DNA of 62,542 nucleotides, filler included, from Collodictyon triciliatum (taxonomy: Eukaryota): assembly GCA_043381765.1 (NCBI GenBank). It is 9 parts of 9 records of this genome, joined end to end, with 100 filler letters (N's around TTAATTAATTAA, not from the genome) between each part and the next. Parts side by side here need not be neighbours in the genome. Positions count along the whole stretch, not along the records: positions 7,518 to 14,932 come from JBHJMP010003910.1; positions 15,033 to 22,444 come from JBHJMP010003911.1; positions 22,545 to 29,962 come from JBHJMP010003912.1; positions 30,063 to 37,473 come from JBHJMP010003913.1; positions 37,574 to 44,977 come from JBHJMP010003914.1; positions 45,078 to 52,475 come from JBHJMP010003915.1; 3 more parts are not named here. One strand, 5' to 3'. This document shows, piece after piece, positions 7,277 to 59,079 of this stretch; position 1 is the stretch's first letter, and each line of letters starts with the position of its first letter. The position numbers and the translations under genes were made by a program. The notes under the pieces are model-generated. The model saw nothing but the letters and a program-made list of their open reading frames with translations. It searched no databases and was not told the DNA's origin.

Positions 7277-7417
7277 GTTTTTGTTTTTTATTGGTTTTTT
7301 ATTGGTTTTTTTATTGGTTTTTTTATTGGTTTTTTATTGGTTTTTTATTGGTTTTTTATTGGTTTTTTATTGGTTTTTTATTGGTTTTTTATTGGTTTTT
7401 TATTGGTTTTTTATTGG

Positions 7418-7517: not shown

Positions 7518-7635
7518 GCTTTGTTGCTTTGTTGCTTTGTTGCTTTGTTGCTTTGTTGCTTTGTTGCTTTGTTGCTTTGTTGCTTTGTTGCTTTGTTGCT
7601 TTGTTGCTTTGTTGCTCAGTTAAAAAAATAAAAAC

Positions 7636-10600
7636 CTGTTGGATGATGGCACCTTTGCGATCAACGATATTCCAGACGGGCAGAGGATACGAATGGGATG
7701 TTTTGGGGAGGGATATATTTTCGCTACTGTATATTTATTGGGCCAAAATTATGAGTGGTGTCTTTTGAATTTAATCGGGAAATGATTATTTAAAAAATAG
7801 CATGCTTTAATATCAATATGTATCTGAATAGAAGTTCACTCGGTCATCTCTCACCTTTCAAACAAATCAATATCACCGTGAGGAACATGATATATAGGTA
7901 CATATGCCAGGTAGACGCGCCCTTGGCTTGGGTAGAAGAGCGCATTCTTTGAAGACTATGTGCCGTATCAAAGTTTTTTTTTTTTATTCTTCCTTTCAAT
8001 TTTGTGCAGGATGGTGGGGATGTTGGCTTTGAGATGCGCCGTATCAAAGTAGAAAGCGCATGTTCGATTTTACTTAAGGATTTTAATTAATATTCTTTAA
8101 GGCGGTATCTGTAATTTACGATAAAGGTGTACCTCGATGGCGTCTTCTCTAGACTCGAAGACACTTAACCCAATTGTCCCTGAAATATTGCTCAGGAGAA
8201 GATAGTACTTCTCTTTTCCGGTTTTTTCGATTTTGATTGAAAACATCTGTTGTTTTTAGTTAATTTAAAAGAGAAAATAGAAATATAATTAGTTAATATC
8301 GTGATTTTCTTCAGCATGCAATGTTGGAAACAACTCTGTTACAAGTTAAATTTTTTTATCAGCAAGGACACCAAAAAAGCCAGACAATTTCAAAATAGTG
8401 CCTTGGATGTGGTCACGTAAAGCCACGGATCTCTCTCAAAGAATTTCGTAGCAGCTTCATAAAACTTTGATATGAAGTCAACTTCCAATCCGTCCACCGC
8501 TTAAAAGAAAAAAAACATTCTAATTAGAAAGATAAATCACGGCGTAATTAATGGTGATATTTCTACTTTTAAAGATAGGAATCAATTAATACGTTAAAGA
8601 ATTGATATTTGCTCGTAAACCATTAAAATAAAGACCTTGCATCAAAGGTTTCAAGTTGGAGGGCTTTGATTGGTTAGCCTATCGCAGGAATAAAAATTAG
8701 CAAACTGCGATAGAGAAAGCATGTAAAAACTTTCTCATCCATGAAGAAATAGATATGAGTGTAAACCTGTTCGATATGTGCTGAAAATACCGATATGTAA
8801 CGAGCATCTTCATCACTGATTTTTGTCGACCTTGTGATGGTTATATTTTCTTTGGAGAGCAGTGTCTATGTTTTGGTTGGTTGTTTGTTTGGTTGTTTGT
8901 TTGGTTGGTTGGTTGTTTGTTTGGTTGGTTGTTTGGTTGTTTGGTTGTTTGGTTTATGTATTTTACTCTCAATTGCGTTCAAATTTGCGTCTGCATTATT
9001 TTAAAAATAAACTGTGATAGTTTCGATATGACGACTACTTCAAGCTCCTGAATTCCAGAAATGTTTCCGTGAATAACAATTTTTTTGGGCTTTGTTGGTG
9101 CTGTATCTACAGACTAATAACACCGTGAAAATACGCGATCATGTGAACTTAAGTAGAATTTGAATCGAAGAAACAAACATAAGGCCGTGCATTTTTGGGA
9201 ACAACCAATAGTCTATCAGTTTTCTGGTAATTTATGAGCTGAAAAGGGAGAGTGAATACCTGGCTTTCGTCGCTTGCTGGGCTCGGAGTGATGCATGCCG
9301 ACAAAAAGGTATCGACGAGCATAGCTACATTCGATTAGATACCGTTTTCTTGAGAAGGAATTGATAACAAAAAGAAAAAATTGAGTAGACTAAATGAAAA
9401 GGCTATTCATTTTTCAATTATTCTGTCTTATTTTCTTTTGTATTCACCTGTCATTTAGTTATCTTACGCGATAATGCTATTATTTCTGAGTGTGGTGTAA
9501 AGAGGGGAGGAGAGTTCTAAGATTGATCGAAATAGTATAAGGAAGGCTATTGGGTACCAGGGGTGGGGTGCTTCTCCATTAATTTATAGGCGCGCAGGTG
9601 AGCCTTTGATTTATCCGTCTGGATGATTAAGATTCCATAAGGACGGTAGATGTGTCCGTTTAATGTTTTGAGGAAGATTTTGAGCCTCTGGACATGCACC
9701 TTCCAGACCTGGTTGGAAAGAGGAAGCTGAGATAACCTGTGCCGTACTTGTCTTTGCGGAAGTGCCGCTATGTGGGGATATTTTAAGAACAAAATCATCG
9801 AATATCGCATAAGAAGTTGTCAATATTTGATTGCTTTTATTTGCGTTAAAAAAATACCGAATTTGCTCAAATTTAAGCGAATTAAGATGTAGAGAGGATG
9901 TAATATTTTTACCTGAGCAGCGCTTCACATTTTCAACCTCCTGTTTAATATCTTTTTGCAGAGCCTTCACTGGTTTGTTGAATGGATCGGTCCTGAGAAT
10001 ACTCGCACATTGTTCTAGAGCTTCAGGGAGAGATCCCATCATGAAGTACGCCTGAGCCAATCGATATTTATTCTAGTAAAATAATAAGAATTTTTTCAAC
10101 GAAAATATTAATAATACCGTTAGTATATATACTGGTGCGCTCATCAATGTGTGCAGAGTATGACATAAATCATCAGGACAATCACGCATTGAAATAAAAG
10201 TGCCGAATCAATATAAAAACTGTATGTCTAGTTCTTGCGTGTAAGGAAATATCTCAATCAACTTCAAGTATTGTATTTCAGGGAATAATAATGGTTGGGT
10301 TTAGGTCAATGTGGACGCAATACCTTTATTGATGATTGGATTGAAATGGCCTTCATAGCATCTTCTATAGCCAATTTCGGAATCTTGAGACCTAGATACA
10401 CCTGAGAGCGGTTTCCATAGCTCGCAGCACAGTTCGGATCGAGCTTTGATATATTAATATCGGAGAATGATATTAGAAGAAAAAATCCGGGCATCATATC
10501 AGTTGTGAGTTGCTGTAAATAAAGTAGCTACTATAGTTATATAAAATGGGGCTGAAACTAGCGTCCTTGCTTCTTGATCAAACTTGATCAAATCAAAAAT

Positions 10601-11077: not shown

Positions 11078-11140
11078 AACTTCAACTCCCTTATTACTTT
11101 GGATCGAATAAAGGGAAAAAAAACTTCAACTCCCTTATTA
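11078..11140 (+). mobile_element. Micro-retroinsertion CTTTGGATCGAATAAAGGG(A)n with a perfect 19-bp TSD
   Basis: AACTTCAACTCCCTTATTA at 11078-11096 and 11122-11140. Confidence 0.75.
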
Positions 11141-11511
11141 ATAAACTTAAAGTAAAGAATCATACACATAGCCGAGGTGAGAAAGAAAACAATAAAGATT
11201 GAGAATGGGAAATGGCAAGTACGCAGCCGAAAACAATCGAAGACTGGCCTTGGAAGTGCTTTTGGTTTTTGGTTTTTCTGCTTTATGATCTTTTTTTCTT
11301 CTTTTTTTGTCTCTACAGACTCTTGATTAAAGTCAGAATTTACTCCAGTTTTGTAATGATTGCGATATTGATTTATTGAATTAATCGCTCAAAATAGCAT
11401 GGACGAACTAAGGGGGTGTCACAGGCAACTTTTGATTTCGATTTTTTTTTTGCTGCTTGCAAGGCCAAGGCACTAAGCCCAGGCGAATCTTCTTTCCTTC
11501 CTTCCTCACAA

Positions 11512-32797: not shown

Positions 32798-32914
32798 GTG
32801 CATTAGTCGAAGAATGACGGAGTCGATCGAATGTAAGCAGGCTGGCTATTAGAATACCATTCCTCCGATGCCCGAATAAAACTCCAACACGCGCAATCTT
32901 CTCTCAGTGGCCAT
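30184..32914 (-). CDS. TRDMT1: tRNA (cytosine-C5) methyltransferase DNMT2
   Basis: Motif I LRVLEFYSGIGGM, motif IV MCPPCQPYTR, motif VI LENVKGFE, DNMT2-specific CFTKGYG..EGSGS, LRYFTPTEV, YRLLGN/SLNV. Confidence 0.93.
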
Positions 32915-33169
32915 CCCCGCTTCTTCTCTTGTGCACACGGAAAGGAACAGTTACTCTTGAGCCGCCTTGATCTTCGCGAAAAGGCTCAGGGTGATTGTAA
33001 TAGACACTTCCAAGTAAAACAGAAAGATAGAAAAAAAAAAAAAGAAGGAAAAAACAAAGAAAACAGAGAAAACAAAGAAAAAAGCCAGTAAATACAAGTA
33101 AATGCACAAGATATAAAATGCGAAAATGATATTGTTCGCTGTGCGCAGTGATGATCTCCGCTTGATGGT

Positions 33170-37181
<4,012 letters not shown>

Positions 37182-37723
37182 GGCTTTGCAGCTCTTGCGC
37201 TGCGCATCGATCAGAGTGTGGGGATCAAGATTGAAGTACAGAGATACTTTCCAACAAGATGCGCCCATAAAGTGGTTTTCGGCCTCATAGAAGGCCGATC
37301 AACTAACCGACGAGTACTGCACGACCAGCAGCTATGGCTCATTCTTTTTCTCTTTTTCTCTTTTTCTCTTTTCTCTTTTCTTTTTCTCTTTTCTTTTTCT
37401 CTTTTCTTTTTCTCTTTTCTTTTTCTCTTTTCTTTTTCTCTTTTCTTTTTCTCTTTTCTTTTCTCTTTTCTCTNNNNNNNNNNNNNNNNNNNNNNNNNNN
37501 NNNNNNNNNNNNNNNNNTTAATTAATTAANNNNNNNNNNNNNNNNNNNNNNNNNNNNNNNNNNNNNNNNNNNNATTTATTATTATATTTATTATTATATT
37601 TATTATTATATTTATTATTATATTTATTATTATATTTATTATTATATTTATTATTATCACATTTACTATCACATTTACTATCACATTTATTTTGATTTTA
37701 AAAGTCTTTGGGCTCACTTTCAG

Positions 37724-39461
37724 GGACCCCCAGGAACCGGAAAGACAACATCCGTGCTTTGTCTGGCGCATGCACTACTTGGTGTATCATTCAAAGAAGG
37801 CGTTTTGGAGCTAAATGCATCGGATGACCGCGGAATTGAAGTTGTGCGGACAAAAATCAAGATGTTTGCTCAGAAGAAGGTCACACTCCCAAACGGGCGG
37901 CACAAAATCATCATTTTGGACGAAGCTGACAGCATGACAGACGCAGCTCAGCAGGCGTTGAGAAGAACTATGGAAATATACTCCTCTACCACTCGATTTG
38001 CACTTGCGTGTAATATGTCAAGCAATATCATAGAGCCCATCCAAAGTCGATGTGCGATTCTGAGATACACAAGATTGGCTGATGAGCAGGTCATGGCAAA
38101 ACTCTTGGAGATATGCCAAAATGAAGGGGTATTTGTAGCAGAGATTATTTAATATGACTGATGTATGGAATGGTTGCTATTTTTGTCCCTGAGTATATAC
38201 GCTATTTAATTATTTGGTTTACAGATTACATATTTCTTTTATTAAATTATGCCCATAATACGTTTTAATATTATTTCGTATCTCGTATATTCTCCTTTAA
38301 CAAAGCAAATGTCTCAATTGCATGAAATAAGACAATACGATGAAGCGATACTTTTCGTGTTATAATAGCTTTTTTTAAAAAAAAAATATATAAGCCTACT
38401 TTATTTAAAACAAGGTTGCTTACACAATGGATGGGCTGGAGGCAATTATCTTCACAGCAGAGGGTGACATGAGACAAGCCATCAACAATCTTCAATCAAC
38501 ACACGCCGGAATGGGTTTGGTGGATGCCGATAATGTTTTCAAGGTTTTTTTCAATTGCTTATTCGCCAACTGGTTTGACGTTTTAAGCCAAAGTTGTTTC
38601 TCCAGTTTTTTGTTTGTTTTTTGTTTATTTGTTTATTTTTGTTTTTTTGTTTTTTTGTTTTTTTGTTTTTTGTTTTTTGTTTTTTGTTTTTTGTTTTTTG
38701 TTTTTTGTTTTTTGTTTTTTGTTTTTTTGTTTCTTTTTGCTTTTTGTTTTTTTGTTTTTGTTGGAAAAATACTATATTGTATACCTTAAGCACTGATAGG
38801 ATTTTATCGTTTGTACTTCATATATTTTGCGTATACTCACAACCTGCGTAGATTTGTGACCAACCGCACCCAAAAATTGTCAAGTCAATTATTCAAAACT
38901 GTCTCAGCGGCCACCTCGACGAGGCCATCAGTACCTTGATGAATAATTTATGGAATCAGTAATTTTATTTTTCTTAAAAAAAAAAAATCGTTTATTTGAA
39001 ATTACTATTGTGGTATATTGTGGAGTTCTGTATAATTGAAATAGATTTTATATGTACGTTATGAATATATCAATCGCACTATTTAAATATATACCCAGAA
39101 CTAATTTGTTCCATGCAAAGAGCTATATTCTCAAAAAAACAATACAGACATGTTACTAATTATCGTATTTATGTGTATATTGACACACTCACTCTCATTT
39201 TCAGAGGGTACTCATCTTTGGATATTATTGGCACGTTCTTTGGCACGGTGCGTAACTATGAGATGCCTGAGTACACCAAACTCGAGTATATAAAGGTGAG
39301 AAGCTTGTATATGCGATTTTGTGCGTGGAATACTGAAGATGGGATAATTGTAGGAAATCGGAACGACCCATATGCGTATCGCGGAGGGAATCAGCAGCCC
39401 ACTCCAGTTGACTGCCCTCCTGTCTCGTCTTGTTCTTTTGTCTCAACCTGCAACTGCCTGA
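37724..39461 (+). CDS. RFC2: Replication factor C small subunit (human RFC2 / yeast Rfc4 type), 5' end missing
   Basis: [83 protein letters not shown]; stop at 39459-39461. Confidence 0.95.
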
Positions 39462-39890
39462 AACATTTACTAGTCGAAATAAAGCAAATAAATAAGTAAA
39501 AAGGAAATGCAAATCACTATCAACCTCGCAAGTGAAGAAATATATACATGAATAAATGTGTTTCATTTTTCTGCAATCTTTTCAGTGTGAGAGGTTGATT
39601 TTCCCCAAATGCAAAACATATTTTGCAACTTGGAGCCAAGAAAGAAGTATAAAAATGGATGTGTATACTCGTACGATTGAGTGGACAGAATGATGCAAAC
39701 GCTACACCAATGATTAAATAAACCCCAAACCTATCCGCCCTTAGACTTTTGGAGCGGATAGATATCAAAAGAAAGCAACAATAATGGGCACTTGTGGATT
39801 TCGATGGTGCCTTAGACCATTTAGAAAAAGTGTTTTGGCAGAGAAAAAAAAAAGCCAAAAATATCGCGAGGCAGGTGCTTAGGGGTAAAA

Positions 39891-39990
<100 letters not shown>

Positions 39991-40250
39991 GCAAAATAGA
40001 ACCTCAGCAAATAAATAAATGACGAAGGGAAACCCATTTTTGTGGCGATTGACTAAACACACCGCCTATTACCCTAATTCACACTAGTTTCACACTAGAA
40101 GTAGTTTTTAATATCTAAATATGTAAAATTAATGACCTTTTTATATAAAATTTAGCATATTGACTATTATTATTGTATTTTCCAGATGTTGATATTAGCT
40201 CATCTTGGAATAGATTTTCTACTTATCGGAAAATATTAACTAAATATCAT

Positions 40251-40303
40251 ATTAATTAACATAAATTATTTTTTCCTTTATTCGATTAATTAACATAAAT
40301 TAT
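40251..40303 (-). mobile_element. Micro-retroinsertion CGAATAAAGG(A)n (15 bp) with a perfect 19-bp TSD
   Basis: ATTAATTAACATAAATTAT at 40251-40269 and 40285-40303. Confidence 0.72.
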
Positions 40304-40925
40304 AACACAATAATGATATTGCATCACTTAATTTCGTAAATAATATCAATCAATTAAAACAATTTACACATATGTATAAAATTGTATCTACAAATATGGA
40401 ATAATATTAATTTGTACATAACCATATCCAGTTCGGCGCAATCGCCTTCGTATGGAAATTCTGGATAAGGTCATAACCATACATGTACTAATATATTTAG
40501 CCTAATTTAACTCAAAAACACGCATAAGGTCATAACCTAAATAGGAACGCCATTAAAGGCAATAGCGCGCTGACTCGTATATGGACAAACATCCTTTTTC
40601 CCAACTCGAAATCCAATCATCACTAGCCTGAGAAGGAAGCTACCAAAGAAGGCGAGATCGCGAGACACTATTTAAAGCGAGGCGAGCGAAGTGTTTTCCT
40701 GCAAAGCCATGCGACTCTGGCACATTCATCCGCCAGACGCCACCCAGCAACACACAAGCCAATGTGAAGGAAGCCAAAACAAAGCCCACAGACTAAACAG
40801 AAATCCACGCCCGAGAAACGTCCATATTCATACAACAGCAACAAACTAATCTGCCAACCAATAATCTTCCCTGCCCGACAGATACCCCACAGCCAGCACA
40901 AACACAACCCAGCCAAGAACAAGAG

Positions 40926-41570
40926 ATGGATCTGTGGGCAACGATATCTGCAACAACAGCAACAGCCTCAAGCAGCCCTGTCATCCATACAGAGACTTCA
41001 CCCCTCTTAGCGCTGCAGACACAAAGCCCACCCTTGTTCAGCCAGGATTGCGCCCCCACAACACTTGTTGTTGTGCCACCTGTCAATGCAGACGGCTCGC
41101 TGCACTATTTCTACTGCCTGCCTCCAGAGTTGCCGTTTCTCATGTGAGTTGCCCTTGCCCGTCAGACTCCCAAATTATTCGCCCCAGGCACTGACAGACT
41201 CTCTCATAGATACCCCTTCCAGCCCGTATCTATCGGTGCGCGCACCGAACAGCCCGGCAGCCAAGAGTTGCAGAGCACGAAGCAGCCTCACTTAGATACT
41301 GAAACCGCAGAAACAATAGCAAAGCCATCAAAGATATCTCACGTTTTGCCAAAACGCCCCAAAGCTGCCTCTGGTATAAAGAAGAAAAAGGCTATCAATC
41401 CATACATCGCCTTTAGCATCGAAATGAGAAAGAAACGTCTCCAGACCGACCCGTTCATAGGCAACCGTCAGCTGATTCTTGAGATTGGGCAGATGTGGAG
41501 CAAACTGTCCCTGTCCGAGAGGGAAGAATATGCTGTTCTCGCAAAGAAGCTGACAGACGAGCTTAACTAG
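40926..41570 (+). CDS. Single HMG-box protein (2 exons; intron 41144-41209)
   Basis: KKAINPYIAFSIEMRKK..IGNRQLILEIGQMWSKLSLSEREEYAVLAKK is an HMG box; phase-compatible GT-AG intron with CTGAC branch point; TATTTAAA at about 40669. Confidence 0.82.
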
Positions 41571-42355
41571 GCCGGCCAATCTACTGTCTCACCACAACAA
41601 TGTGCCGTGTAAGGCAATCACAATTTGTCCTTGAGGTGATGTTCCTGGTTATAACCATTGGCTCCCTGAATCACCGTCTATGTATTTCTAAAAATCATGA
41701 TATCATTATGTTCATCCACCCACTACCTGCTAGACCCAAAGTCCACATTCAATCTTTTGAAATAAAATGACGGAAGAAATGAACGATTACGAGTAGGAAT
41801 ATGAACCCCTCCTTTTTCTCGGATATATAATTAAGGTTTGATGGGATTGGGCGGGGTAAAACCAAGCCGATGTGCTCTATGAGCAGGTCTCTTCTTTGTG
41901 TCATTGTGCTGTGTCATTTGAACTACGAAGGCGAAACACCATCACAATAAAGCTGTTAAAGTAAACCCGTTTCTATGTATGATGAAGCTGGTGATGTCCT
42001 GTGCGAACTAATGCGGGTTGTTCTCTGTGTCTTTTCTCCCCTTTTCTTTTTCTTCTGCCCTGTTGTCCAAAATTGCCCAACACATCTCACGATGCCATTC
42101 CTCCCTTTTCCACATTTGACCACATCGAACGACGCTTGTTCGTGTGTTCCTTTCGGAAACCGAGATGAATCAGCAACGAGCGGGCTCCTGCTTTGTCGGA
42201 GTGGTTTTTCGCTTGCCGTCGGCCCTTGTGCGTACCTTCTCTGGTGCCTTCTATTAGCCTCCGGTGAAGTTGGAGAGGTCATTATTTTCCGCCAAAACCC
42301 GTCAAAAAATGGCCATGTAATTAATGCATAGGAAAATCTGAAGCAGGTATTTCCT

Positions 42356-44446
42356 GTGCCTAACCGCGACCGCCGAGAACACATGCAGTGTCGCCTGTCT
42401 GACCCCACCCACGGCCAAGAAAAGAGGGACTCTTTGGCCAAACCTCATCCAAGCGAACACGTTCAATCCTGCACTCATAAGTTTTCTGCCTCCAGCAGCG
42501 TGGAGCGCTCTCGTTCTTCCATGCCAGAGAGCTCCGATCCAGCCATTTTGTCTGATCGAGAGAGTGCTCTCCAACCAGTCTCGGACCACTTCCACTACAA
42601 TTCAGATATATCCCAAACCCCCATACCCCCCACATCAACTGTTACTTATCCGGCCTCTTCTAAGCTTCGGCCACACACAAATCCCTTGTTGATGGATGAG
42701 TCTCATCCCACAGAGAATCGCTCACAAAATCGAGCATATCTACCCCAATCTTGCGATGCAGATGACTTTGGGGGAGCTCCAAAAGAGATTACACAAGACA
42801 GGCAACAGCTGCATGGACAAGAGGTTGGTTTATTCTCGCCATCACACACACTCGTAGGTGCCTTACATCATTCAGACCCTTTGGGCAATTCCGAGGCGAA
42901 ATCTCCTTTGGTATTGATGTCTATTTCATCGGAGGTGAGTACAGGGGTCCATTCCAAGGAATCTCGCGTGCAGAGCGAGACGGTTGAGCAGTCTCATCTT
43001 CAACATGGCGATCACCCCTCATCATACTACTTCAGACTGCTTGATGTTGCACCGCACCAGTGTGAAGACCATACCGCAGAGATTCACCCGGAGGAAAGTT
43101 CCAAACCGAGTCTTGATTGTGCACGTGTGAATGAATCAGATCCCCAGAGCTGCAAATCCACTGAAAGAACCCCGCTATTCATCCGACATGCCGATGGTGA
43201 GTCTACGCAGCTGAAGAAATCAATCAAGGCCATCATGACGCGGAACCGTAGGGCACAGATGTCTGAGGAAGAGAAGAATCGTGTGCGCAAGGTTAACGCA
43301 GACTCGATGCGATTGAAGAGGGCTCAGATGAGTATTGAGGAGCGCAAGAAGGCAAGTCTCACTGCCATCATGAATAGGAAACGGAGAGTCTCTGGAATGA
43401 CAGACGAGGAAATTGTTGCCCGCCGCCAAGCTGCCAACGAAGCCATGCGCCTCCGCCGAGCCAGGAAAACAGAAGAAGAGAAAGCAAGAGGGAATAGACC
43501 ACGAACACTGCAATGCAGAACCCATTTGATATCACCAATTCCCTTGGTCTCTCAAGTAGCAAACATACCAAACTCACGTCCGCCATTGGCTATCTATTCA
43601 TGTGCATCAGATAGCCCAGCAAGTAATCCGCCGCATTCAGCTTCTGAACCCGTTCCTACATCAGCAGTGTCATCTGTGTGGCCTATGCCGCCTTCAGACA
43701 TGGATGCTAGCTTTGCTCAGTTCCATGAAGTAGTGGAGCCCGACGAACAATATGCAGAGGGAACTGATAGCGATATTCATCAACAAGTCTCTTCGCACAC
43801 CAGCCACCCTTTGCATATCACACATCATTCATCAAATTATTTTCGCCACCACCACCACCATTCAAGCACCCAGCACCACTTGCCACAACCACTAGTCAAT
43901 CAAATTCATGAATCTACATCAATTGCCCCATACCAGCTTGTCTATCACCAACATAATCACTATCATATAACCCAATCACCAGGGCAAAATAACTACCTCT
44001 CTAACCATGACCAGCAGCAAAATCAACCTCGGTGTGTCTTTATTTTAGAGCACCCTGGAGATGGCCCCCGCTCACAGGTTAAACGTCCCAAGGCCGTCCA
44101 GCCCATTCGGAAAAAGATGCATGCACATACACACCACCCAACACGATTGCACCCTCCTATGGGCCCAGAGGGTCACGGCACAACCCTCGTAGATCAGGAC
44201 ATTTCCCTTGAAGAATCCCGGATGCATATGTGCAAACTAGAAAAGGGTGCCACCCTTGAAAGTGTATTTGGAGAAATGTCTGGTTCTCCCGCTCGACTCA
44301 CACAGACATCCAAACCGGATGACAAACAAAGAAGTTTTGAGGCTTACTCAGGACCTCGCCATGGAGATACTGACACCGATCAGAATCTCACATGCGATGG
44401 TGAAGACAGTGGTAGTAGCGATGTTATACCCCTTGCAAATGATTGA
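42356..44446 (+). CDS. Low-complexity protein with 23-aa helical repeats (STPR-like) and a His/Gln-rich tract; true start uncertain
   Basis: 696-codon uninterrupted ORF with repeats MSEEEKNRVRKVNADSMRLKRAQ / MSIEERKKASLTAIMNRKRRVSG / MTDEEIVARRQAANEAMRLRRAR / KTEEEK. An in-frame AG acceptor at 42331 suggests an upstream exon. Confidence 0.7.
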   Translation: MPNRDRREHMQCRLSDPTHGQEKRDSLAKPHPSEHVQSCTHKFSASSSVERSRSSMPESSDPAILSDRESALQPVSDHFHYNSDISQTPIPPTSTVTYPASSKLRPHTNPLLMDESHPTENRSQNRAYLPQSCDADDFGGAPKEITQDRQQLHGQEVGLFSPSHTLVGALHHSDPLGNSEAKSPLVLMSISSEVSTGVHSKESRVQSETVEQSHLQHGDHPSSYYFRLLDVAPHQCEDHTAEIHPEESSKPSLDCARVNESDPQSCKSTERTPLFIRHADGESTQLKKSIKAIMTRNRRAQMSEEEKNRVRKVNADSMRLKRAQMSIEERKKASLTAIMNRKRRVSGMTDEEIVARRQAANEAMRLRRARKTEEEKARGNRPRTLQCRTHLISPIPLVSQVANIPNSRPPLAIYSCASDSPASNPPHSASEPVPTSAVSSVWPMPPSDMDASFAQFHEVVEPDEQYAEGTDSDIHQQVSSHTSHPLHITHHSSNYFRHHHHHSSTQHHLPQPLVNQIHESTSIAPYQLVYHQHNHYHITQSPGQNNYLSNHDQQQNQPRCVFILEHPGDGPRSQVKRPKAVQPIRKKMHAHTHHPTRLHPPMGPEGHGTTLVDQDISLEESRMHMCKLEKGATLESVFGEMSGSPARLTQTSKPDDKQRSFEAYSGPRHGDTDTDQNLTCDGEDSGSSDVIPLAND

Positions 44447-44512
44447 GATACTCTTTCTGTAATTCAGCTCCTTGTCATATTGTATCACAACCAAGCGTTC
44501 CTTACACCACAC

Positions 44513-44746
<234 letters not shown>

Positions 44747-45077
44747 TCTACTAACTTCTGCATTTACATTTGATTACTTTTTTTTTGGCAAATCGTACAT
44801 GAGTGGGTTTGGTTGCCTGTATGCAAACCCGTTCCCTAGCTACCGTGGATTATAATCATCGGAGAACCCTACCTGGTATTTAACAATAAAACATAATTGT
44901 ATTTGGATTTAAGATTTGGTGCAATTGACCACTCATATTCCTTTTTTTTTTTTCTAAATATATTGATTTTAATAAAANNNNNNNNNNNNNNNNNNNNNNN
45001 NNNNNNNNNNNNNNNNNNNNNTTAATTAATTAANNNNNNNNNNNNNNNNNNNNNNNNNNNNNNNNNNNNNNNNNNNN

Positions 45078-48000
45078 TTTCCCCAAGAGGTTCAGACTGT
45101 TATTAAGTCTAAAAAACTTGAGGATTTTTGCAAACGAAATCAAGCAAACTGCACCGGCGAGACACTAGAGTTGTTGATGAAACAAAAAATCAGATGTTGG
45201 TGTATCTTGTTTCAAATATATGTTAGCCTATTCAGGGGATAAGGTGTCATAATATGTAGATGAAACGATAGGCGTCATCTAACCTGAAAAACGGTGTATA
45301 TGTTGGATGTCGTCTGGAAATTAATATATATTGTTGGCTCTAAAGGGTTATGGTAATGATGGACGATGTCATAAATGTCCTCTGATTTTTTGATAAAATA
45401 GGATATGACTACGATAATCGCGAGCGTCGACTTTGATGAAATAGTTAAGGTTTTTGATTTAAAATAGATAGAGAGGGTCAGTTCGGGAAAAAAAAATGAT
45501 GCTGAATTTATTTAATTATGTATCTTAAGAATAATTCTTGAATGTTTATCCCGAAGAGTTTTCATGGCCATAAGTAAGGATACACATTCAGATATGATTT
45601 CAAAAAGTTCCCAAAATCCTATATCTGACTGAGACATGTCTGCAAAAATCTTTTTTTTTTCCAAAGAATTGAGTATATTGAATATAGCTTAATTGTCAAT
45701 TCAAAATGACATAGCTGACTATGAACAATATAAGAAAAAAAATACCCTGGGGACATCTCGAAAGGCTATAGCGAGGCCCGTGAGAATGTAAAATGCAAAG
45801 TATATCATTTGACTGCTACCGCCTCCGCCTTTGACTCTATTGATTTCGTTACTATTGAGTTTTGCGATTCCGTTTAATTTTCCCATAAATAAAATAAGAC
45901 AAAATAGCTTCCCTCACTTGAATCGAATAAAGGGAAAAAATGGGATGAGATAAAATAAAATAACGAAAATACGTGAAAACTTATAGTGATAAATATAGAA
46001 GAAAAAAAACATGTCCGGCATACAGTATAAGAGGAAAGCTGTTTATTCGTGAAGTTGTTGTGATGAGTCCCGTTGGTGAAAATTCGAACAACTATCCAAT
46101 ATGGTATTCATATTGATGAGTAATTGTCGTGATGTGGATTTATTTTCGTTCGTGTGTGACATATGAATAGCAGGAAGAAAAAAGTACGTATTCCACAGAT
46201 GTGAGGATTCCACTATCTCCATTTATCATACTGAAGTCGAGGGCTACGGCTCTAGTAGAACGGTCGATCCAATTATCATCCTTAAAAAAATGAAGAGAAA
46301 GAGAATGACTCATCATGTAACCGAGTATCGATGAAATATTCTCTTGGTTCGAGAAAAGAAATCAATTACCTTGAGTTGTGATATTAAGGAGAGTGTATCA
46401 TTGAGTCCATATGGCATAGTAATCGCGTGTGCTCCAGTGCCGTACACGGAATCTGGACTGATATGTGTATCACGAAAGTATACGAATGACGATATGAGGA
46501 CTGGCCATTCTTCTGAATAGGTATATTTCCTGGAGTAGGAATGGTTTGGTGGACAGGTTAATTTCTATTGGCAGGCAATAAACTTGCGGAATATCCTCGT
46601 TGAAGGGATATGTTTTTCATAGCATGTTTAAAACTGCAACATCGCAGTAAATATTGCTAAAAATATTCGATATGATTCTTTTTTAAAAATATAAAATAAA
46701 ATACTGTGGCTCGCTTTTTGGTCCAAAAGGATTCTTGTCTATGTTGTCGTATCGAAAGAATCCATAGCAATCTGAGTTAGTCTCATATATCTTGCATGGC
46801 CCAGATTTGACGCGGATCTGGCGAAGCAAAGGTTTTCCAAAAAGTCTGACTCCATCGTCTATCGTCCCATTGTTCACAAAAAGACCAATGGCTATTGAAG
46901 ACGACAGGAACTGAAATCGTGTAAATTTGTAAAGGAAGAAAAACTGACGTTAACATAGCTTTATACAAATAGAGCAAATGGGCTGCATAATAGGGTTTGA
47001 TGAACATCCTTTAACTATAAAACATTCCTTGTCGCGTATGTACTCGAATATCATATGCGGTGCTATTTCATGCATTTGTCCTATTTCTATTCCATTCTTT
47101 CTGTCTATCTTAGTTTAACGTAAACTTTACCGAGTAGAGTCCGTCCTATAAAGAACAACAAAACATTTTTTTTTAATAAAAACCTTTCAAAAATAGATAT
47201 AGGGTGCAAAAATGTTGATTCACAATTCCCACAATTCTTTTTCCTTATAAAAGACTCACTACAGAGTTCACAGAGGAGACGTCTTGATAGTCTGGATTGC
47301 TCTCTGAAAGAAATTTAGATATTCAATAAACGTAACATGTTGTTTATTAGATTTATTACCTTTCCGCTAAACATAATTTAATATCGTAATTTACATTTCT
47401 AAAGTAAAAAGAAAATGAAAAAGAATATAAAGAAGGCAATATAGTGTTATCATTTGATTTTGCAGTGGGCATTAAATCTGATATTACCTGAAGAAAAGTA
47501 TGTAGCCAAGAAGGAAGACTGCATTCATCAATTATTAGTAACATGATAGAGAATCCTTATCAATTCAAATATGAACTAAAATAGCATATGGTTAAGTACA
47601 ATCTGAGGTTATGCTTTTGATTGAAATAACGATCACCTCTTCATAGAGAACTGAAACGGGGATAAACCAAACCACAAGGATAAGGTATGCAATCAAATGT
47701 ACAAGGTAAACCAATAGTTCTAAGTTAAAATCAGTCCTTGCCAGGATTTCAAAGTAGTTGAAAACATTTTCGGAGTTCAGGACGGTGTACATTTTTCTGG
47801 TTTGTGTACCATCTAGTAAACAAAATCGTGTCAAATTACGTAAAATTAGGTGTGGCAAATTGTATGTTTATCCAGCGATAATGCATAATTTTCCAAAAAA
47901 AATAATTAATTTATAATCCACCAACCTTGTTTTTCTGTGCTTTCATTTTCCTTGTATTCTCGAGATTTATGATACAACTCAGTGAATTCACTATCTGCTC

Positions 48001-49989
48001 TGTGCGAGGTAAACATCCGGGCTGCTGTTTTTCGAAGAGGGTTTGGTAAAAAGAATACAAAAAGTGAAAGGATGCTGAAATCAGCGATATATTCTGAGGT
48101 ATCGCTTTCTGGCCGAGGATTTACTTCGTTTTGGGCTCCTAGGTCAACTATTGTTTCATATAAAAAATAAATTGTATAAGTTTCAAAGAGATGCTCTCTG
48201 TCCTGATTATCACATATCAATTAATGTTCATATGTATTTTCCGTATTCTTTTTTTTTTATTCGAGGATATTGCTAACAAGTTCCCACGATTTGAATGGCA
48301 GATAAAATATTGAATGAAGATCTATCAATTACGTTCTTGAGGGGCTGGGTGGACGACATTTGATATTTTGGGAGGCCCTCCAGAGGGTGACATTAGTGAT
48401 GGACTTGATTTTATGGAGGGCTCATCCTTTTGGTAGAGATAACAGAAGAAAATCACTCAACCCAAGAATTGTACAGAATGGTTTTTTTAAGATTGAAGGC
48501 CTGCTTATGCTGTGTGTTGTATGCATAAAATATTACGAAGATGGGTACAGCGGCAGGTAATGTATCCTTTGCAAGCATCAGCGGGGTAAATCCTCCCAAA
48601 TTTTTAACGTGTGTATCTGCACCCAAATCAACAAAGAGGCGTACAGTACTCTCATGTTTATGAAGCACTGCCAAGTGCAATGCTGTGTTTCCATCTTTGT
48701 TTTTCGCGTTTAAATTACATTTTGCAGCATGAAGATATCTTATGATAGACTCGTGCCCTATTTTTGTGCAAGTCGAATCAATTTCACAAAGATTTGAGAT
48801 TCACATGCTTACTAAATTCCACGAGTGAATTATACGCTGGCAAAACAGGGGGAAATACATCAACATGAAAACAATATAGGAAAGGAAGGGAAAGGAAGGG
48901 AAAGGAAAGGAAAGGAAAGGAAAGGAAAGGAAAGGAAAGGAAAGGAAAGGAAAGGAAAGGAAAGGAAAGGAAAGGAAAGGAAAGGAAAGGAAAGGAAAGA
49001 AAAAAAGAAAAGAAAAGAAAGGAAAGGAAAGAAAAAAAAGAGAAGAAAAGAGAAGAAAAGAGAAGAAAAGAGAAGAAAAGAGAAGAAAAGAGAAGAAAAG
49101 AAAGGAAAGGAAAGGAAAGAAAAAAAAGAGAAGAAAAGAAAGGAAAAGAACCGTTTTTAGCGGCGATGTGAATGACTGCATTTTCATTGTCAGCCAATTG
49201 CTCAAGAGCCTGAGCAGAATACTTTGCCAGGGCATCCACAACGTCAAGGAATCCGCCATCGACTGCATAGTGTACAGCCTGCCACTTTCTAGCATCACGA
49301 GTCATGAGCATGGCCTTCAGCTGGATGAGCTGATTTACAACCGCGAGGTTCCTAGAGACATGTTATATGTGGGTTAGAGCTTATTAGTAGTCCTTTTTTT
49401 TTTTTCCTTTATTCGATTCAAAGTACAGTGAGCTTATTGGCAGTCTTATCATAATGTATTATCGACTTTACAGGCTTGAAATACAACGGATGTAACCAAA
49501 ATAAAATTAATGAAGAAACCAAAGAAAATGAAAAAAAAAAGAATTGTCAGAAAATATTCGTCGTATGTTGAGAACTCTAATGACACTAATAACGATACCC
49601 TTTCTGACAAGCCACGATTAAGGCTGTTTCACCTTTCTCATTCTTCTCCTCAATATCCACCTTTAGACGGGCCAATGTCTATATTATTTTTTTGTCAATA
49701 AGGCATGTCCTTTGACCTCCTTCCTTTTTTAATAACAGACGCACGGAAATAAAAAAAAACAAAACGAAGGTACACGAGAGGGAACGGATGAGACCATAGA
49801 GACATAACAAACAGCAATCATTGTGTCATATCCATTCCTCGCGCATTGATGGATAGGCGATTCCCCGTGGCTCCGTGTCTTGCTGGGGTCGAACAAAGCC
49901 TCTGTCCCAGGCTGTGTCTCGATTCGATGCAAAGTCTTTTGGGCTTCGTCCGGTTTGCCGGCGTCCAAATGACGAAGGAACTCCTCCAT
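45078..49989 (-). CDS. Ankyrin-repeat + polycystin-2 (TRPP/PKD2-like) cation channel, multi-exon, 3' truncated
   Basis: Ankyrins GESPIHQCARNG, WQAVHYAVDGG, DGNTALHLAVLHKHESTVRLFVDLGAD, GFTPLMLA; then TM1 and polycystin TOP-domain motifs LFGKPLLRQIRVKSGPC and LK/DDNWIDRSTRAVALDF..LFEFSPTG. Start codon uncertain. Confidence 0.75.
45917..45940 (+). mobile_element. Copy of the micro-element core CTTGAATCGAATAAAGGG(A)6 without a recognisable TSD
   Basis: Matches the other copies in sequence. Confidence 0.55.
49377..49445 (-). mobile_element. Longest micro-retroinsertion copy ACTGTACTTTGAATCGAATAAAGG(A)n with a 16-bp TSD (2 mismatches)
   Basis: GAGCTTATT(A/G)G(T/C)AGTC at 49377-49392 and 49430-49445. 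Confidence 0.7.
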
Positions 49990-50626: not shown

Positions 50627-52475
50627 ATGAGCAGAGAAGCCGCTTTGGAAGCAGACTCTCCCGTTCTGCTTGGAAAGAGCAGCGCGCTTGACGAGGCCGA
50701 CACCCCCGACCGCTCGGACCACGACTCAGACGCAGAGGCCTCGGCAAGCCTGCTGCTTCGGCAGAATGCATCGTCAGACTCGCTGAGCTCCTTGGACGGG
50801 TCCGGTGACGAGTCTTCGGCCACGGCTGCGGGCATTGTGCACAAACCATACCGCAAGTCCGACGTCTTCAAGGAGTTCCAGACCATCATGGTCATCAAAG
50901 TCGGCTCTCACCTGCTTGCCGATCCCTCCTCGAACATGGATGTCCAGATTGCTCGTTTGGCCCCCGTGGTCGACGCCGTTGTGCAGTTGCGCCAGGCTGG
51001 AGTCCACGTCATCCTCGTCACATCCGGTGCATTGTCCATGGGCGCATCAAGGTCATCTGTGATGATTGTGATGATTGTGATGATTGTGATGATTGTGATG
51101 ATTGTGATGGCTGTGCTGATTGTGATTGTGATGATTGTGATGATTGTGATGATTGTGATGGTTGTGCTGATTGTGCTGATTGTGATGATTGTGATGGTTG
51201 TGATGGTTGTGATGGTTGTGATGGTTGTGATGATTGTGATTGCGCTGATTGTGATTATGATGACTATGATGACTATGATAGTTGTGGTGGTTGTGCTGAT
51301 TGTGCTGATTGTCATGATTGTGATGGTTGTGATGATTGTGATTGCGCTGATTGTGATTGTGATGACTATGATGACTATGATAGTTGTGGTGATTGTGATG
51401 ATTGTGATGGTTGTGATGGTTGTGATGATTGTTGTGGTGATTGTGGTGATTGTGATGATTGTAATGATTGTGATGGTTGTGATGGCTGTGATGGTTGTGA
51501 TGATTGTGATGATTGTGATGATTGTGATGGTTGTGATGGTTGTGATGATTGTGATGATTGTGATGATTGTGATGATTGTGATGATTGTGATGATTGTGAT
51601 GGTTGTGATGATTGTAGTGATTGTGGTGATTGTGATGATTGTGATGATTGTGATGATTGTGATGATTGTGATGGTTGTGATGGTTGTGATGGTTGTGATG
51701 ATTGTGGTGATTGTGATGATTGTGATGATTGTGATGATTGTGATGATTGTGGTGATTGTGATGGCTGTGCTGATTGTGGTGATTGTGATGATTGTGATGG
51801 TTGTGATGGCTGTGCTGATTGTGATGATTGTGATGGTTGTGATGGTTGTGATGATTGTTGTGGTGATTGTGGTGATTGTGGTGATTGTGATGATTGTGAT
51901 GATTGTGATGATTGTGATGGTTGTGATGGTTGTGATGATTGTTGTGGTGACTGTAAAGATGCCGGTGATATTTATAAAAAAAGGTTGATGTTGCAGGTTG
52001 CAGCTGAAAGCACGACCAAAATATCTTCCGCAGCAGCAGGCCGCATGTGCAGTGGGACAAAGCCGCCTGATGCGAGTATACGACGATCTTTTTTCGATGG
52101 CCGGAAATCACCCCATCGCACAGGTGAAGGCCTTATTCGTTCCTTCGCAAAAGAAAGAGACATAGAAAACGACAGAAAAAAAAAGAAGGCAACATGATGA
52201 ATGCATCATCATATATTGTCGTATCACATTCACGGCTATATATGCATTTCAATAAACAAATACGCACAAATAAGTAGGTTCTCATCACACGCGAGGACCT
52301 CGGCCAGCGCCACCGATATCTGAACGCACTCAACACCTTCAAGGAGCTCCTCTCGTACAACATCATCCCGATAGTGAACGAGAACGACTCTGTAGGGGTG
52401 TGCGGGCTGCGCTTCGAGGACAACGACACGCTCGCTGCAGGCGTCTCGAACCTTGTGGAGGCGGACTACCTCGTC
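50627..52475 (+). CDS. proB: Glutamate 5-kinase (ProB/Pro1 family), at least 3 exons, 3' truncated
   Basis: [84 protein letters not shown]. Confidence 0.92.
51058..51955. repeat. About 900-bp degenerate (GTGATGATT)n triplet-based minisatellite inside intron 1 of glutamate 5-kinase
   Basis: Lies between donor GT (about 51052) and acceptor CAG (about 51996). Confidence 0.9.
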
Positions 52476-52577
52476 NNNNNNNNNNNNNNNNNNNNNNNNN
52501 NNNNNNNNNNNNNNNNNNNTTAATTAATTAANNNNNNNNNNNNNNNNNNNNNNNNNNNNNNNNNNNNNNNNNNNNAT

Positions 52578-54959
52578 GTAAATGGTCCTAGTAATTTTAA
52601 TGCTTATACTCCCAATTATTCATTAATATTAACGCCTACTTTATCGTGCACATTTGATCCTACGGGCACAGCTTCTGCATTATTCGGTATTGCATGTAAT
52701 ACAAATAATGGAGTTTATGTTATATGTAGTAATACTTCAACATCAGGACATCAGCGATTATTTGTTTCAGAACCTAATAATTTAACTACATGGACGGCTA
52801 TAACTAATACTAATATAAATATAAATAATTTACGAAATATTGTTTTTGGTAATAATATTTGGGCGTGTCTTTCACAGTCAGATACAACGCGTACATTATT
52901 TTATACTACTGATATTACAGCAAAGACAGGATGGACACAAGTTGCAAATTCGGCGCCTTGGACAACAACGCGAATATTAAATCGTTTAAAATTTATCAAT
53001 GGACAATTTGTAACTGTTGATACGGGTTCAAGATATCGAGTTTCAACAGATTGTGTGGTTTGGTCTTTTGAAATTTCGATGACGGCGACCGCTTATAATA
53101 TGTCCGATATAACATATTCTCCCGAATTAAGAAGATATGTTGTGGTTGCTAATAATGCTATTTTATATTATGATGGTACAACATTACCAACAACAGGAAG
53201 TAATATGTTTACTCCTGTTATAACAACTTCAAATTTAGCAGCGGTTGAGTGGTCTTCAAAATTGGGTATGTTTTCTACTAGTACAAATTCAGCTAATGGT
53301 TCATTTTTAATATCAAAAGATGGTATAAATTGGACAAGTCCGGGTACTTTACCATGGATAAATAGAACTATAACATGGGTTAATGATTTTGGCGGGTTTT
53401 TTATGGCTTCACCTCAACAAAACACGAATAATCTTGCAATTAGCAGAGATGGTATAAATTGGCAAACTATAGCATTATCATTTACATCTTTTGGAGCTTC
53501 AAATTATTATAATCCTGTAACTAAAATGTTTGTATTTTCAGGTACTGATATAGCACATTATCGAGATGTCAACACTTTATTTTCTTCTTATGTTGATACT
53601 GATTTAATTTATAATACTTTTAATTCTAATGTTAGATTTGACGATATTATTGAATACAAAACACAATTAATAACAACAGAAACCGCAAACACACATTATA
53701 CAGTATCAGTATTAAATAAACCAAATATTGACGTAAACACAACAAATGCAAACTTTAATATATATATGCAAGGTACATCATTTAATGGAAGATTAGGAAC
53801 AACTTATAAAATATATAAATATGCTTCATCTAATAATAATGTTAGAATTCATGGTTATGAAACAACTAATATTATATCACCATTAGGCAATATATCAGGA
53901 TTCAATGCCCAAAGTTCCCCACAAATATATAATTTAATACCGGCGGGATATTTTGGTAATTTTGAATTAATACGTGTTTCTGATAGTGGTAATGGTACAT
54001 GGTTAATAACTAATTTAAATGTTTATGATAGTACAGGAACAAAACGAGAAATCGGAAGTTTATCAATTGCTAATAATTTAAGTATTGATGGGTCATTTTC
54101 AACTAATGGAATAAATATAAATAGAAATTTTATATGGACACCATCAGCCGGAGTTGTACAAACATTAATATATGATATTGGAACTCATGGATCATATGTT
54201 CAAATTAATGCAGTAAATGACAATCAGACAGTGTTTATAACTTTACCAAGTTTAAATATAACAGGATATCAAAACAAGACATTTTTATTAACTTTTGATT
54301 TAGTATTAGATAATGCAAGGACTCAAACATTTGGTGTATTTTCTTATCAATCGCCGACAGTTAGATTATCAACGGGAAACAGACCGGCACAAGAATATAC
54401 AGGAGAATTAGTATATGAGCCTAGAAGTTGGAGACTTGACACACCAGGAGGGGCACTAACAAGAAGAGATTATAGAGGAGGTCCAATATCATTTTTAGTT
54501 AGTACAAGTTCTAATTATACATGGTATCGACCTATAACAAATGATGACGATTTAATAGAAGATGTAGGATCGATAAATTGTATTTTTTCAAATCCTGATT
54601 ATTATATAAATGTTAATAATTCTAATCAAGGGATAACATTTTATAAATATAATGAAGTAATAGGGGCACCATCAGGAACAAATGTTATTTTAAATTTTGA
54701 AACTTTAACATTTGCCGATAATAAATTTACTATATATTTTACTATGACGTCGGGAAATTCTACCGGTAATTTTAATATAAGAAATAATATGTCATCAGGT
54801 GATATAGTTAATATATATTCTCAAGGATCAGTAACATCTTTAGTGGTAGGAGGTAGTACCAATAGAGATGGTCAATCATTTTTAAGATGTACATATTATC
54901 ATAGTAGATTCGGAAACCCTCAAAATGTATGGGTAATACATGTACTAAACTCAATATAA
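52578..54959 (+). CDS. Viral fibre/receptor-binding-like protein, at least 793 aa, 5' truncated
   Basis: The frame is open from the contig edge (52578), upstream of the listed GTG. Asp-box-like repeats VSTDCVVW, ISKDGINW, ISRDGINW; Asn/Thr/Ser-rich beta content. Confidence 0.6.
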   Translation, partial: VNGPSNFNAYTPNYSLILTPTLSCTFDPTGTASALFGIACNTNNGVYVICSNTSTSGHQRLFVSEPNNLTTWTAITNTNININNLRNIVFGNNIWACLSQSDTTRTLFYTTDITAKTGWTQVANSAPWTTTRILNRLKFINGQFVTVDTGSRYRVSTDCVVWSFEISMTATAYNMSDITYSPELRRYVVVANNAILYYDGTTLPTTGSNMFTPVITTSNLAAVEWSSKLGMFSTSTNSANGSFLISKDGINWTSPGTLPWINRTITWVNDFGGFFMASPQQNTNNLAISRDGINWQTIALSFTSFGASNYYNPVTKMFVFSGTDIAHYRDVNTLFSSYVDTDLIYNTFNSNVRFDDIIEYKTQLITTETANTHYTVSVLNKPNIDVNTTNANFNIYMQGTSFNGRLGTTYKIYKYASSNNNVRIHGYETTNIISPLGNISGFNAQSSPQIYNLIPAGYFGNFELIRVSDSGNGTWLITNLNVYDSTGTKREIGSLSIANNLSIDGSFSTNGININRNFIWTPSAGVVQTLIYDIGTHGSYVQINAVNDNQTVFITLPSLNITGYQNKTFLLTFDLVLDNARTQTFGVFSYQSPTVRLSTGNRPAQEYTGELVYEPRSWRLDTPGGALTRRDYRGGPISFLVSTSSNYTWYRPITNDDDLIEDVGSINCIFSNPDYYINVNNSNQGITFYKYNEVIGAPSGTNVILNFETLTFADNKFTIYFTMTSGNSTGNFNIRNNMSSGDIVNIYSQGSVTSLVVGGSTNRDGQSFLRCTYYHSRFGNPQNVWVIHVLNSI

Positions 54960-54968
54960 ATATTATGA

Positions 54969-55000
54969 TTTTTAAATAATACATATATATTATTTAAAAA
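54969..55000. terminator. 13-bp-stem hairpin between convergent viral genes
   Basis: TTTTTAAATAATA-catata-TATTATTTAAAAA. Confidence 0.55.
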
Positions 55001-56160
55001 ATATTAGAACTATAAGACAATCTTAAAGGTTGTTTTTTATTATTAAAATCTTTTGATACATTACTTATAAATTTAGATTTATTATTATTATACATATCAA
55101 AACCACCATTATATATAAATTGTTTAGCATAAGATAAACTTTTAAATATTTTTGTTTTTGCCCCTTCTTTTACAATATAATTTAATCCTACCAATTTAAT
55201 ATTAATTTTTTTACCATTGACGATATAATCGCCTAAATCATTATTTACATATGAACTTATTTTTAATGGATTTTGTGTATTTTCAACTTTATATATATTT
55301 TCTGTCCCTGTTATTAAATTAGCATTTTTAGTCGGTTTATTTTGATCGCTTACATTTACTTTTTTTAATGGATATATACCTAATTTAAAATAATTTCTTA
55401 CTGTTTCATAATGATTAGCACTGTCTCCGTCTTTTAAATCATTTATTATTAAATCAAATTTATCAGATATCATTTTTGTATCATTAGATGATAACCTTAT
55501 TAAATCATTTTCTAAATCTTCCACTGTTGTATAACGTTCATTTACTCGTTTTTCATTAAATCTATACCCTGATGATAAATTATTATATAATTCTAAATTT
55601 ATTCTTTCTATAAGTTTATTTAATTCTGTTATATTATCTTGTACTAGTTCTGAATTGGTAAATAAATCTCTCATTCCTGGTTCTTCTTTAATTTCAGCAG
55701 GTCCTGTGTTTTCTTCAGCGCTTATAGCTTCATCTAATGTTCTTACTTCTCGACCTTCATATTCTAATTGATCTAAATTATAAATTTCTGGATTTTGTAA
55801 TAAATAACCAAAAATTATACTTTTTAAAGTTTTGTCTCTTAAACTTGTGTTTGAAGTAAATTGTTTAATGATAGCTGAAGCTTGAGATCTAAGAGGTATT
55901 AAACTTGTATATTGACCTAAAAATGATTTATATTTAGTAAAATAACGTTTAGTCGTCGCGTCTGGTTTTTCATTTGCTATAAATTCTGGAGGGGTAAATT
56001 TGTCTTCTATTCCTAAAATTTCCTGTATATCGTTAATTACATTTTCCATCACAACATTCGCGTTAATATATGAGTTTGAAACTTTACTTGGTTTAACATT
56101 CTGTTCAAATGATTGAACAACTTTATTTAATATATTTTCAAAATATTGTCGTAATACCAT
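54994..56160 (-). CDS. Viral hypothetical protein (388 aa)
   Basis: Long ORF in very AT-rich DNA with an ATG preceded by TATAATATAT; no family recognised. Confidence 0.8.
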   Translation of the reverse strand: MVLRQYFENILNKVVQSFEQNVKPSKVSNSYINANVVMENVINDIQEILGIEDKFTPPEFIANEKPDATTKRYFTKYKSFLGQYTSLIPLRSQASAIIKQFTSNTSLRDKTLKSIIFGYLLQNPEIYNLDQLEYEGREVRTLDEAISAEENTGPAEIKEEPGMRDLFTNSELVQDNITELNKLIERINLELYNNLSSGYRFNEKRVNERYTTVEDLENDLIRLSSNDTKMISDKFDLIINDLKDGDSANHYETVRNYFKLGIYPLKKVNVSDQNKPTKNANLITGTENIYKVENTQNPLKISSYVNNDLGDYIVNGKKINIKLVGLNYIVKEGAKTKIFKSLSYAKQFIYNGGFDMYNNNKSKFISNVSKDFNNKKQPLRLSYSSNIF

Positions 56161-56205
56161 ATATATTATATATCTAAAAAAATTTTATATATATATAATT
56201 ATATA

Positions 56206-56577
56206 ATGATAGGAGATATAATGAGAAAAAGCGCATTTGGACGAATTGGTAATATAAGAAAAGTTACCACACAAGCAGGAGGCATAATATCAAATCTTTC
56301 ATCAAAAGCAAAAGAAGGAATCCAAAAATTTGAAGATATAGCAAATAAAGTAGATAAAATAACAGGAGGAGCGGCAGGTGATGTTTTAAGAAGTTCAGGA
56401 ACTATTCAACAATATCAATCATATAAAGCACCTGTTATGACAGGATTAAAAGCGGCAGAATTATTCGGGTCATCATTAAAACGATTAGGAGGTGAAAAAT
56501 TAACACAAAGCAATTTAAAAAAATCATGGGATGAAGCAAAAGAAGGTATAAATATAGGTAAGTCAATAATAAAATAA
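56206..56577 (+). CDS. Small basic Gly/Lys-rich viral protein upstream of the MCP (possible core/structural protein)
   Basis: 123-aa ORF, TATATAATG start context, co-oriented with and adjacent to the MCP. Confidence 0.7.
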   Translation: MIGDIMRKSAFGRIGNIRKVTTQAGGIISNLSSKAKEGIQKFEDIANKVDKITGGAAGDVLRSSGTIQQYQSYKAPVMTGLKAAELFGSSLKRLGGEKLTQSNLKKSWDEAKEGINIGKSIIK

Positions 56578-56622
56578 ATATATAGATTAAATAATTTTTT
56601 TATATTACTATTATATATATAT

Positions 56623-58167: not shown

Positions 58168-58194
58168 TTAAAATATAAATATTTATATTTTAAT
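58167..58194. terminator. Perfect 28-bp palindrome immediately after the MCP stop
   Basis: ATTAAAATATAAAT|ATTTATATTTTAAT. Confidence 0.65.
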
Positions 58195-58257
58195 CAAATT
58201 ATTTTTTATTTATTGGAATTTGTGAAAAATCGGGAACGCTTGATTCTGTGTCAAATT

Positions 58258-58359
58258 CTACAGATGACCACAACATGAAGATTTTTTAAAATGTTTTAAT
58301 ATTCTTTCAATTACTAAACCAGCCATTAATATTATTGATACTATGCTCGCAGGATCCAT
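58258..58359 (-). CDS. Small viral membrane peptide (33 aa; possibly a frameshifted 53-aa gene)
   Basis: MDPASIVSIILMAGLVIERILKHFKKSSCCGHL*, with the ATG in the same TATATATAATG context as its neighbours; not in the ORF track. Confidence 0.55.
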   Translation of the reverse strand: MDPASIVSIILMAGLVIERILKHFKKSSCCGHL

Positions 58360-58390
58360 TATATATATATTTATATATTATGTTTATATA

Positions 58391-59072: not shown

Positions 59073-59079
59073 ATATATA

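Follow-up and report, generated by a model that had tools for sequence, protein, structure and literature searches.

Very short A-tailed inserts with long flanking duplications in Collodictyon triciliatum, probably extreme truncations of a LINE tail

Eight very short A-tailed inserts in DNA of the eukaryote Collodictyon triciliatum (assembly GCA_043381765.1), nearly all of them flanked by direct repeats, raise the question of whether so few bases can be a mobile element in their own right or are what is left of a larger one. The DNA analyzed, called the window below, is a stretch of 62,542 nucleotides (nt) and is not one continuous DNA: it consists of nine pieces of ~7.4 kb each, joined by N44-TTAATTAATTAA-N44 spacers, and with extra N blocks at 16745-17200 and 35670-36201 it holds 60,850 non-N bases. 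We conclude that the inserts are probably products of target-primed reverse transcription (TPRT), namely extreme 5' truncations of the 3' end of a long interspersed nuclear element (LINE) of the poly(A) type, and not a self-standing element. The mechanism is thus a known one, and its product is unusually short.

The family is defined by a 12-base core, ATCGAATAAAGG, which at up to one mismatch has 7 matches in the window against 0.41 expected (standard deviation 0.75), a number that none of the shuffled windows reached (0/100). An eighth copy, at 15596, was found by reading the site; it carries a degenerate version of the core, AATAAGGAG, and is an older, degenerate copy. The initial annotation of this DNA had proposed eight copies on five contigs at about one per 7 kb, and we found all eight where it had placed them (Table 1), spread over five pieces at a density of one per ~7.6 kb (8 in 60,850 non-N bases). 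It had also seen no copy in a contig that it regarded as viral, and the core scan, with up to one mismatch allowed, likewise gave no match in that piece (52576-59972).

Table 1. Members of the insert family (c1-c8) and a second A-tailed insert of unrelated sequence, in window coordinates; inserts are given as the non-A part followed by the tail
Feature	Span	Strand	Duplication	Length and mismatches	Insert	Insert sequence	Remarks
c1	11078..11140	+	11078-11096 / 11122-11140	19 bp, 0 mismatches	11097-11121 (25 bases)	CTTTGGATCGAATAAAGGG + A6	
c2	15581..15636	+	15581-15595 / 15622-15636	15 bp, 2 mismatches	15596-15621 (26 bases)	CTTTGAATCGAATAAGGAG + A6 + T	
c3	16396..16444	+	16396-16408 / 16432-16444	13 bp, 0 mismatches	16409-16431 (23 bases)	TGTGAATCGAATAAAGGGG + A4	5' end departs from consensus
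c4	24196..24247	+	24196-24213 / 24230-24247	18 bp, 1 mismatch	24214-24229 (16 bases)	ATCGAATAAAGG + A4	
c5	25591..25649	+	25591-25608 / 25632-25649	18 bp, 1 mismatch	25609-25631 (23 bases)	TTGAATGGAATAAAGGG + A6	
c6	40251..40303	-	40251-40269 / 40285-40303	19 bp, 0 mismatches	40270-40284 (15 bases)	CGAATAAAGG + A5	Last 3 bases of duplication (AAT) assignable equally to insert
c7	45917..45940	+			45917-45940 (24 bases)	CTTGAATCGAATAAAGGG + A6	No convincing duplication
c8	49377..49445	-	49377-49392 / 49430-49445	16 bp, 2 mismatches	49393-49429 (37 bases)	ACTGTACTTTGAATCGAATAAAGG (24 bases) + A12 + G	Longest copy
Second A-tailed insert	7958..8050	-		17 bp, 1 mismatch	59 bases	ends in ...GGAAGAATAAA + A-run	Landing site CT|ACTT

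The flanks carry the strongest evidence. A scripted measurement gave duplications of 13-19 bp with 0-2 mismatches at seven of the eight copies, and to these we compared 4000 random placements in the window, scored by the same function with the real sites excluded and with tandem repeats masked, because microsatellites inflated the control scores. A duplication score of at least 13 was found in 0 of the 4000 controls and in c1, c3, c4, c5 and c6, with c1 at 19, while the scores of c2 (9.5) and c8 (9) were equalled or exceeded by 9 and 19 of the 4000 controls, respectively. The seven flanking repeats of 13-19 bp claimed at the outset are therefore upheld, five of them beating all controls and two reaching scores that a few controls share. 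The family was also recovered by an unbiased screen for close exact direct repeats, and a further screen anchored on A-runs returned 10 rows: five family copies with duplications, a weak row for c7, the second insert of Table 1, and three rows without the A-tail build, one at 40463 and two in the AT-rich piece at 52576-59972; c2 and c8 lie below the cut-off of this screen. The row at 40463 (40463-40537, plus strand) is a 16-bp direct repeat with 1 mismatch around a 43-base spacer that has no A-tail, and it stands outside the family. Across the duplication pairs 6 of 118 positions are mismatched, and five inserts show a single-base or indel difference from the consensus, so the copies differ in age. 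The length of the duplication varies from copy to copy, a point against a transposase that cuts with a constant stagger.

The inserts themselves measure 15-37 bases, with a non-A part of 10-24 bases. All copies share a 3' end in which AATAAAGG, or a close variant of it, is followed by 0-2 additional G and by A4-A12, and this A-run directly adjoins the downstream flank in 8/8 copies. The 5' starts fall on about six different bases of a 24-base consensus that is present in full only in c8, in agreement with the variable 5' truncation and shared 3' end described initially; three copies hold 18 copied bases and two hold ~12, with the others spread. At the 5' junctions there are 0-3 bases of possible microhomology. 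On the target side, the base before the duplication is T in 6/7 copies (TT in 4/7), and the duplication opens with A in 5/7. An A at position -1 would be taken as part of the duplication, so that a fair null expectation for T is ~0.46; against it the six T of seven have a binomial probability of ~0.04, which is suggestive only. As to coding potential, one frame of the 24-base tail of the longest copy (49393-49416, minus strand) runs into an in-phase TGA followed by TAA (…T V L stop), and the other two are open into the A-tail.

Two copies can be placed within an expressed gene. Public sequencing runs were aligned to one piece of the window (22545-29840), and there the runs X1 and X2 behave as RNA, with contigs that skip the GT..AG introns (87-349 nt) of a minus-strand gene; the shares of runs X3-X6 are 0.05-0.08, and we draw no habitat or strain conclusion from them. 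Copy c5 occupies the 5' end of a minus-strand intron (25490-25635, 146 nt) whose joint, 25487/25634 (cut +2), is present in RNA contigs of both X1 and X2. Its duplication holds the 5' splice site twice, in transcript sense ...GATG|GTAT, and the exon-side copy is the one used in both runs: the insert landed on the exon-intron border, and the duplication restored that border. Copy c4 falls within a predicted GT..AG intron of 126 nt (24176-24301) in a minus-strand gene, deduced from the exon end, the read depth and the splice motifs rather than from the joint itself. Both copies are antisense to the gene, these being the only two documented cases, and where it can be judged the copies are harmless, in introns and antisense. 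Landing on an exon-intron border can thus be harmless, as at c5, because the duplication regenerates the splice site. One contig of run X4 matches 25608-25642 alone, with unlike flanks on both sides; it may be a copy at another locus, the match being too short to judge.

Duplications left by TPRT of the L1 type are variable, roughly 7-20 bp, the L1 nick site is a T|A step (TT|AAAA), and in human L1 an AATAAA stands just before the tail, as one does a few bases before the tail here. L1-type TPRT is recognized by the combination of duplications that vary in length, an A-tail, a single 3' end paired with differing 5' starts, and landing at a T|A step. What was observed here is the build of the inserts, with the statistics on it, and the position of two copies in introns; an enzyme of this type, a LINE as the parent and the reason for the early stop are inferred. 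At each site an L1 (APE)-type endonuclease would nick the target at a T|A step, and the T-rich 3' end so released would serve as primer on the poly(A) tail of an RNA from a retroelement. Copying by the reverse transcriptase would cover the last 10-24 bases only, and the complementary DNA would then be linked to the far side of a break staggered by 13-19 bp, so that the stagger leaves the duplication. Most likely a poly(A)-type LINE would have supplied the template with its 3' end, where AATAAA precedes the tail by a few bases. That the copies bear hallmarks of TPRT had been suggested already in the initial annotation, and the 13-19 bp duplications, the A-tail and the shared 3' end with different 5' starts sustain the suggestion, the T before the duplication in 6/7 copies being suggestive; abortive TPRT, one of the two origins it offered, fits.

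Several results weigh against this derivation from a LINE tail. No parent is seen in the window, where 0 of 241 open reading frame (ORF) translations match any family of reverse transcriptases or endonucleases; among ORFs of 55-99 amino acids, 146 of 267 were compared, namely those lying outside 22545-37473 and 41995-44459 and not beyond 50382. Public sequence collections did not supply a parent either. A 20-mer scan of metagenome contigs gave 4 loci, two of which are a bacterial coding region and two of which lie on near-identical AT-rich contigs without an A-tail, family copies or similarity to the window, and 18-mer scans gave 20 loci in genome contigs and 1 in viral contigs, all in unrelated contexts. 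Among these public-scan loci, 0 of 25 have an A-run of at least 5 after the motif and 2, in bacterial genes, have A4; the matches are chance or unrelated. Nor was an empty site observed: the DNA contigs of X3 and X4 bridge neither c4 nor c5, cover there being absent or partial, so that no empty allele was seen, and there are no paralogous empty sites in the window. Around c7 (45917) the flanks give only an offset 10-bp match with 1 mismatch, and its best flank score of 6.5, equalled or exceeded by 148 of the 4000 controls, is not convincing. The T at position -1 rests on only 7 sites and is partly forced by the definition of the boundary, by which an A would join the duplication. Finally, three copies (c1, c2 and c7) start at CTTTG, which simple random truncation does not predict.

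The second A-tailed insert of Table 1 bears on how general the process is. It is unrelated in sequence to the family and is probably the tail of another retroelement family; because it has the same build with another sequence, retroposition of this style is general in this genome and not tied to one sequence.

The initial annotation had offered two further ideas, and neither was supported. It had proposed that the core can fold into a hairpin with a 5-bp stem and had noted that some LINEs recognize a 3' stem-loop, as holds for the tails of stringent-type LINEs and short interspersed nuclear elements (SINEs). A stem of CTTTG with TAAAG is possible on paper, but with a minimum free energy of only -0.3 kcal/mol (z +0.59) it is equalled or surpassed in stability by 121 of 200 shuffles; for the fold as it stands in c1 (-1.2 kcal/mol, z -0.18) the same is true of 72 of 200 shuffles. 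Recognition of a 3' stem-loop was rejected on these grounds, the fold being no better than that of shuffled sequence. It had also named a minimal SINE as an alternative origin. We rejected this as well: the inserts have no discrete 5' end and no unit length (15-37 bases, with about six starts), the window contains no tRNA gene and no Rfam match, and 10-24 non-A bases leave no room for a promoter.

Within TPRT itself, the reason for so early a stop might be more specific than truncation at random. The template might have been a fixed 3' RNA fragment, protected by the reverse transcriptase or made by a guided cut, or a host factor might abort copying after ~12-24 bases; we regard a non-random stop of either kind as unlikely. 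Also unlikely is a self-standing micro-retroposon, in which a discrete polyadenylated RNA of ~12-24 bases would be copied to its end in trans by LINE enzymes. That RNA might be a 3' piece of the LINE transcript, cut off or shielded by the enzyme, or might be an independent small RNA. The clustering of starts speaks for such a unit, with three of eight at CTTTG and two at or near ATCG (c4, and possibly c6 within its 3-base ambiguity), as does the mean copied length of ~16 bases, which is hard to reconcile with an enzyme that also makes full-length copies. However, the eight copies show about six start bases and one of them reaches 24 bases, neither of which suits a discrete RNA, and such a unit finds no counterpart among tRNA or Rfam RNAs in the window and no stable form in the drawn hairpin.

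There is a slight chance that the inserts are retro-copied 3' ends of an abundant host mRNA, that is, fragments of processed pseudogenes, and not LINE tails. The AATAAA near the poly(A) is what any mRNA 3' end might have, L1-type enzymes do copy mRNAs in trans according to passages of PMC11702581, and the parent was not seen in the window. Against this, 8 of the 9 A-tailed inserts found in the window have one and the same sequence, a better fit to the cis-preference of a LINE than to copying in trans. An artefact, in the form of an adapter or a chimera from library preparation or assembly, might be suspected from a motif so short and constant in a window assembled from short contigs that end in simple repeats, but it is very unlikely because the duplications, which adapters do not create, are site-specific, each copy having its own, and partly decayed, the mismatches and the differing ages of the copies speaking against a library origin, and because copies lie inside contigs and within introns of expressed genes, with the X4 match at 25608-25642 and its unlike flanks perhaps another copy in a separate DNA run.

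The remainder of the window has features of its own. Pfam matches of its ORF translations are eukaryotic (RING, B-box, NHL, WD40, ankyrin, HMG box, RFC, polycystin and dynein), and for the NHL domain of a 563-amino-acid ORF no relative above 45% identity was found in a large protein collection. Microsatellites occupy most piece ends (7283-7417, 7518-7616, 14800-14932, 22295-22439, 29852-29962, 37342-37471, 37574-37657 and 62450-62542), and the assembly therefore appears to break at simple repeats. A tandem array at 51058-51942, with a 9-bp unit (TGTGATGAT) in ~97 copies, leaves several frames open, and does so on both strands. On the plus strand at 42332-44443, a 704-amino-acid open frame without a Pfam family lies in a GC-richer stretch (0.49 against ~0.35) and contains three similar basic repeats of the form ...RNRRAQMSEEEK.... 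The piece at 52576-59972 is AT-rich and has long ORFs without a Pfam family, one of which (514 amino acids, 56623-58164) has viral clusters as its nearest neighbours in language-model features (score 0.97, no more than a lead), among them double-jelly-roll capsid families from virophages, polinton-like viruses and giant viruses.

If the tail does belong to a LINE, as the TPRT reading holds, this genome illustrates the extent that 5' truncation can reach, with most landings leaving 10-24 bases and a short A-tail. Marks of this size would be missed by ordinary repeat finders and could pass for small indels, so that retroelement activity would be undercounted. Should the early stop be non-random, the genome would record a defined abortive stage of TPRT at ~1 mark per 7 kb, and these would be the shortest retro-copied units known. 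If the start bases prove to be clustered across the whole genome, a defined pause or a short template in the copying reaction would be indicated.

An open-access keyword search found no description of a family of LINE-tail inserts below 30 bp with long duplications, which is weak evidence of absence, and the nearest known systems match the window copies in part. SINEs, including those of stringent-type LINE-SINE pairs with a common 3' stem-loop, resemble them as short, dispersed inserts dependent on LINE enzymes; unlike these, the window inserts lack a head with a promoter, a set unit length and a stable hairpin at the 3' end. There is also a likeness to the 5'-truncated ('dead on arrival') insertions of L1-type LINEs, which share variable duplications, poly(A), a common 3' end and microhomology with the window copies. 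For L1, passages of PMC11702581 describe 5'-truncated insertions with duplications of 12-18 bp and with 5' junctions of little or some microhomology, and give a median insertion length of 712 bp in an L1 experiment, whereas the window copies amount to 10-24 bases and their starts are concentrated on one or two bases. Ylli, an L1-family LINE of the yeast Yarrowia lipolytica, is also similar in having left numerous 5'-truncated, poly(A)-bearing fragments of very small size: the parts of PMC5014426 that describe this element report 17 full-length copies, 7 copies above 1 kb and 104 fragments of 30 bp to 1 kb, and state that target duplications were not identified. Compared with Ylli as described there, the window copies have long and clear duplications, and their inserts are shorter.

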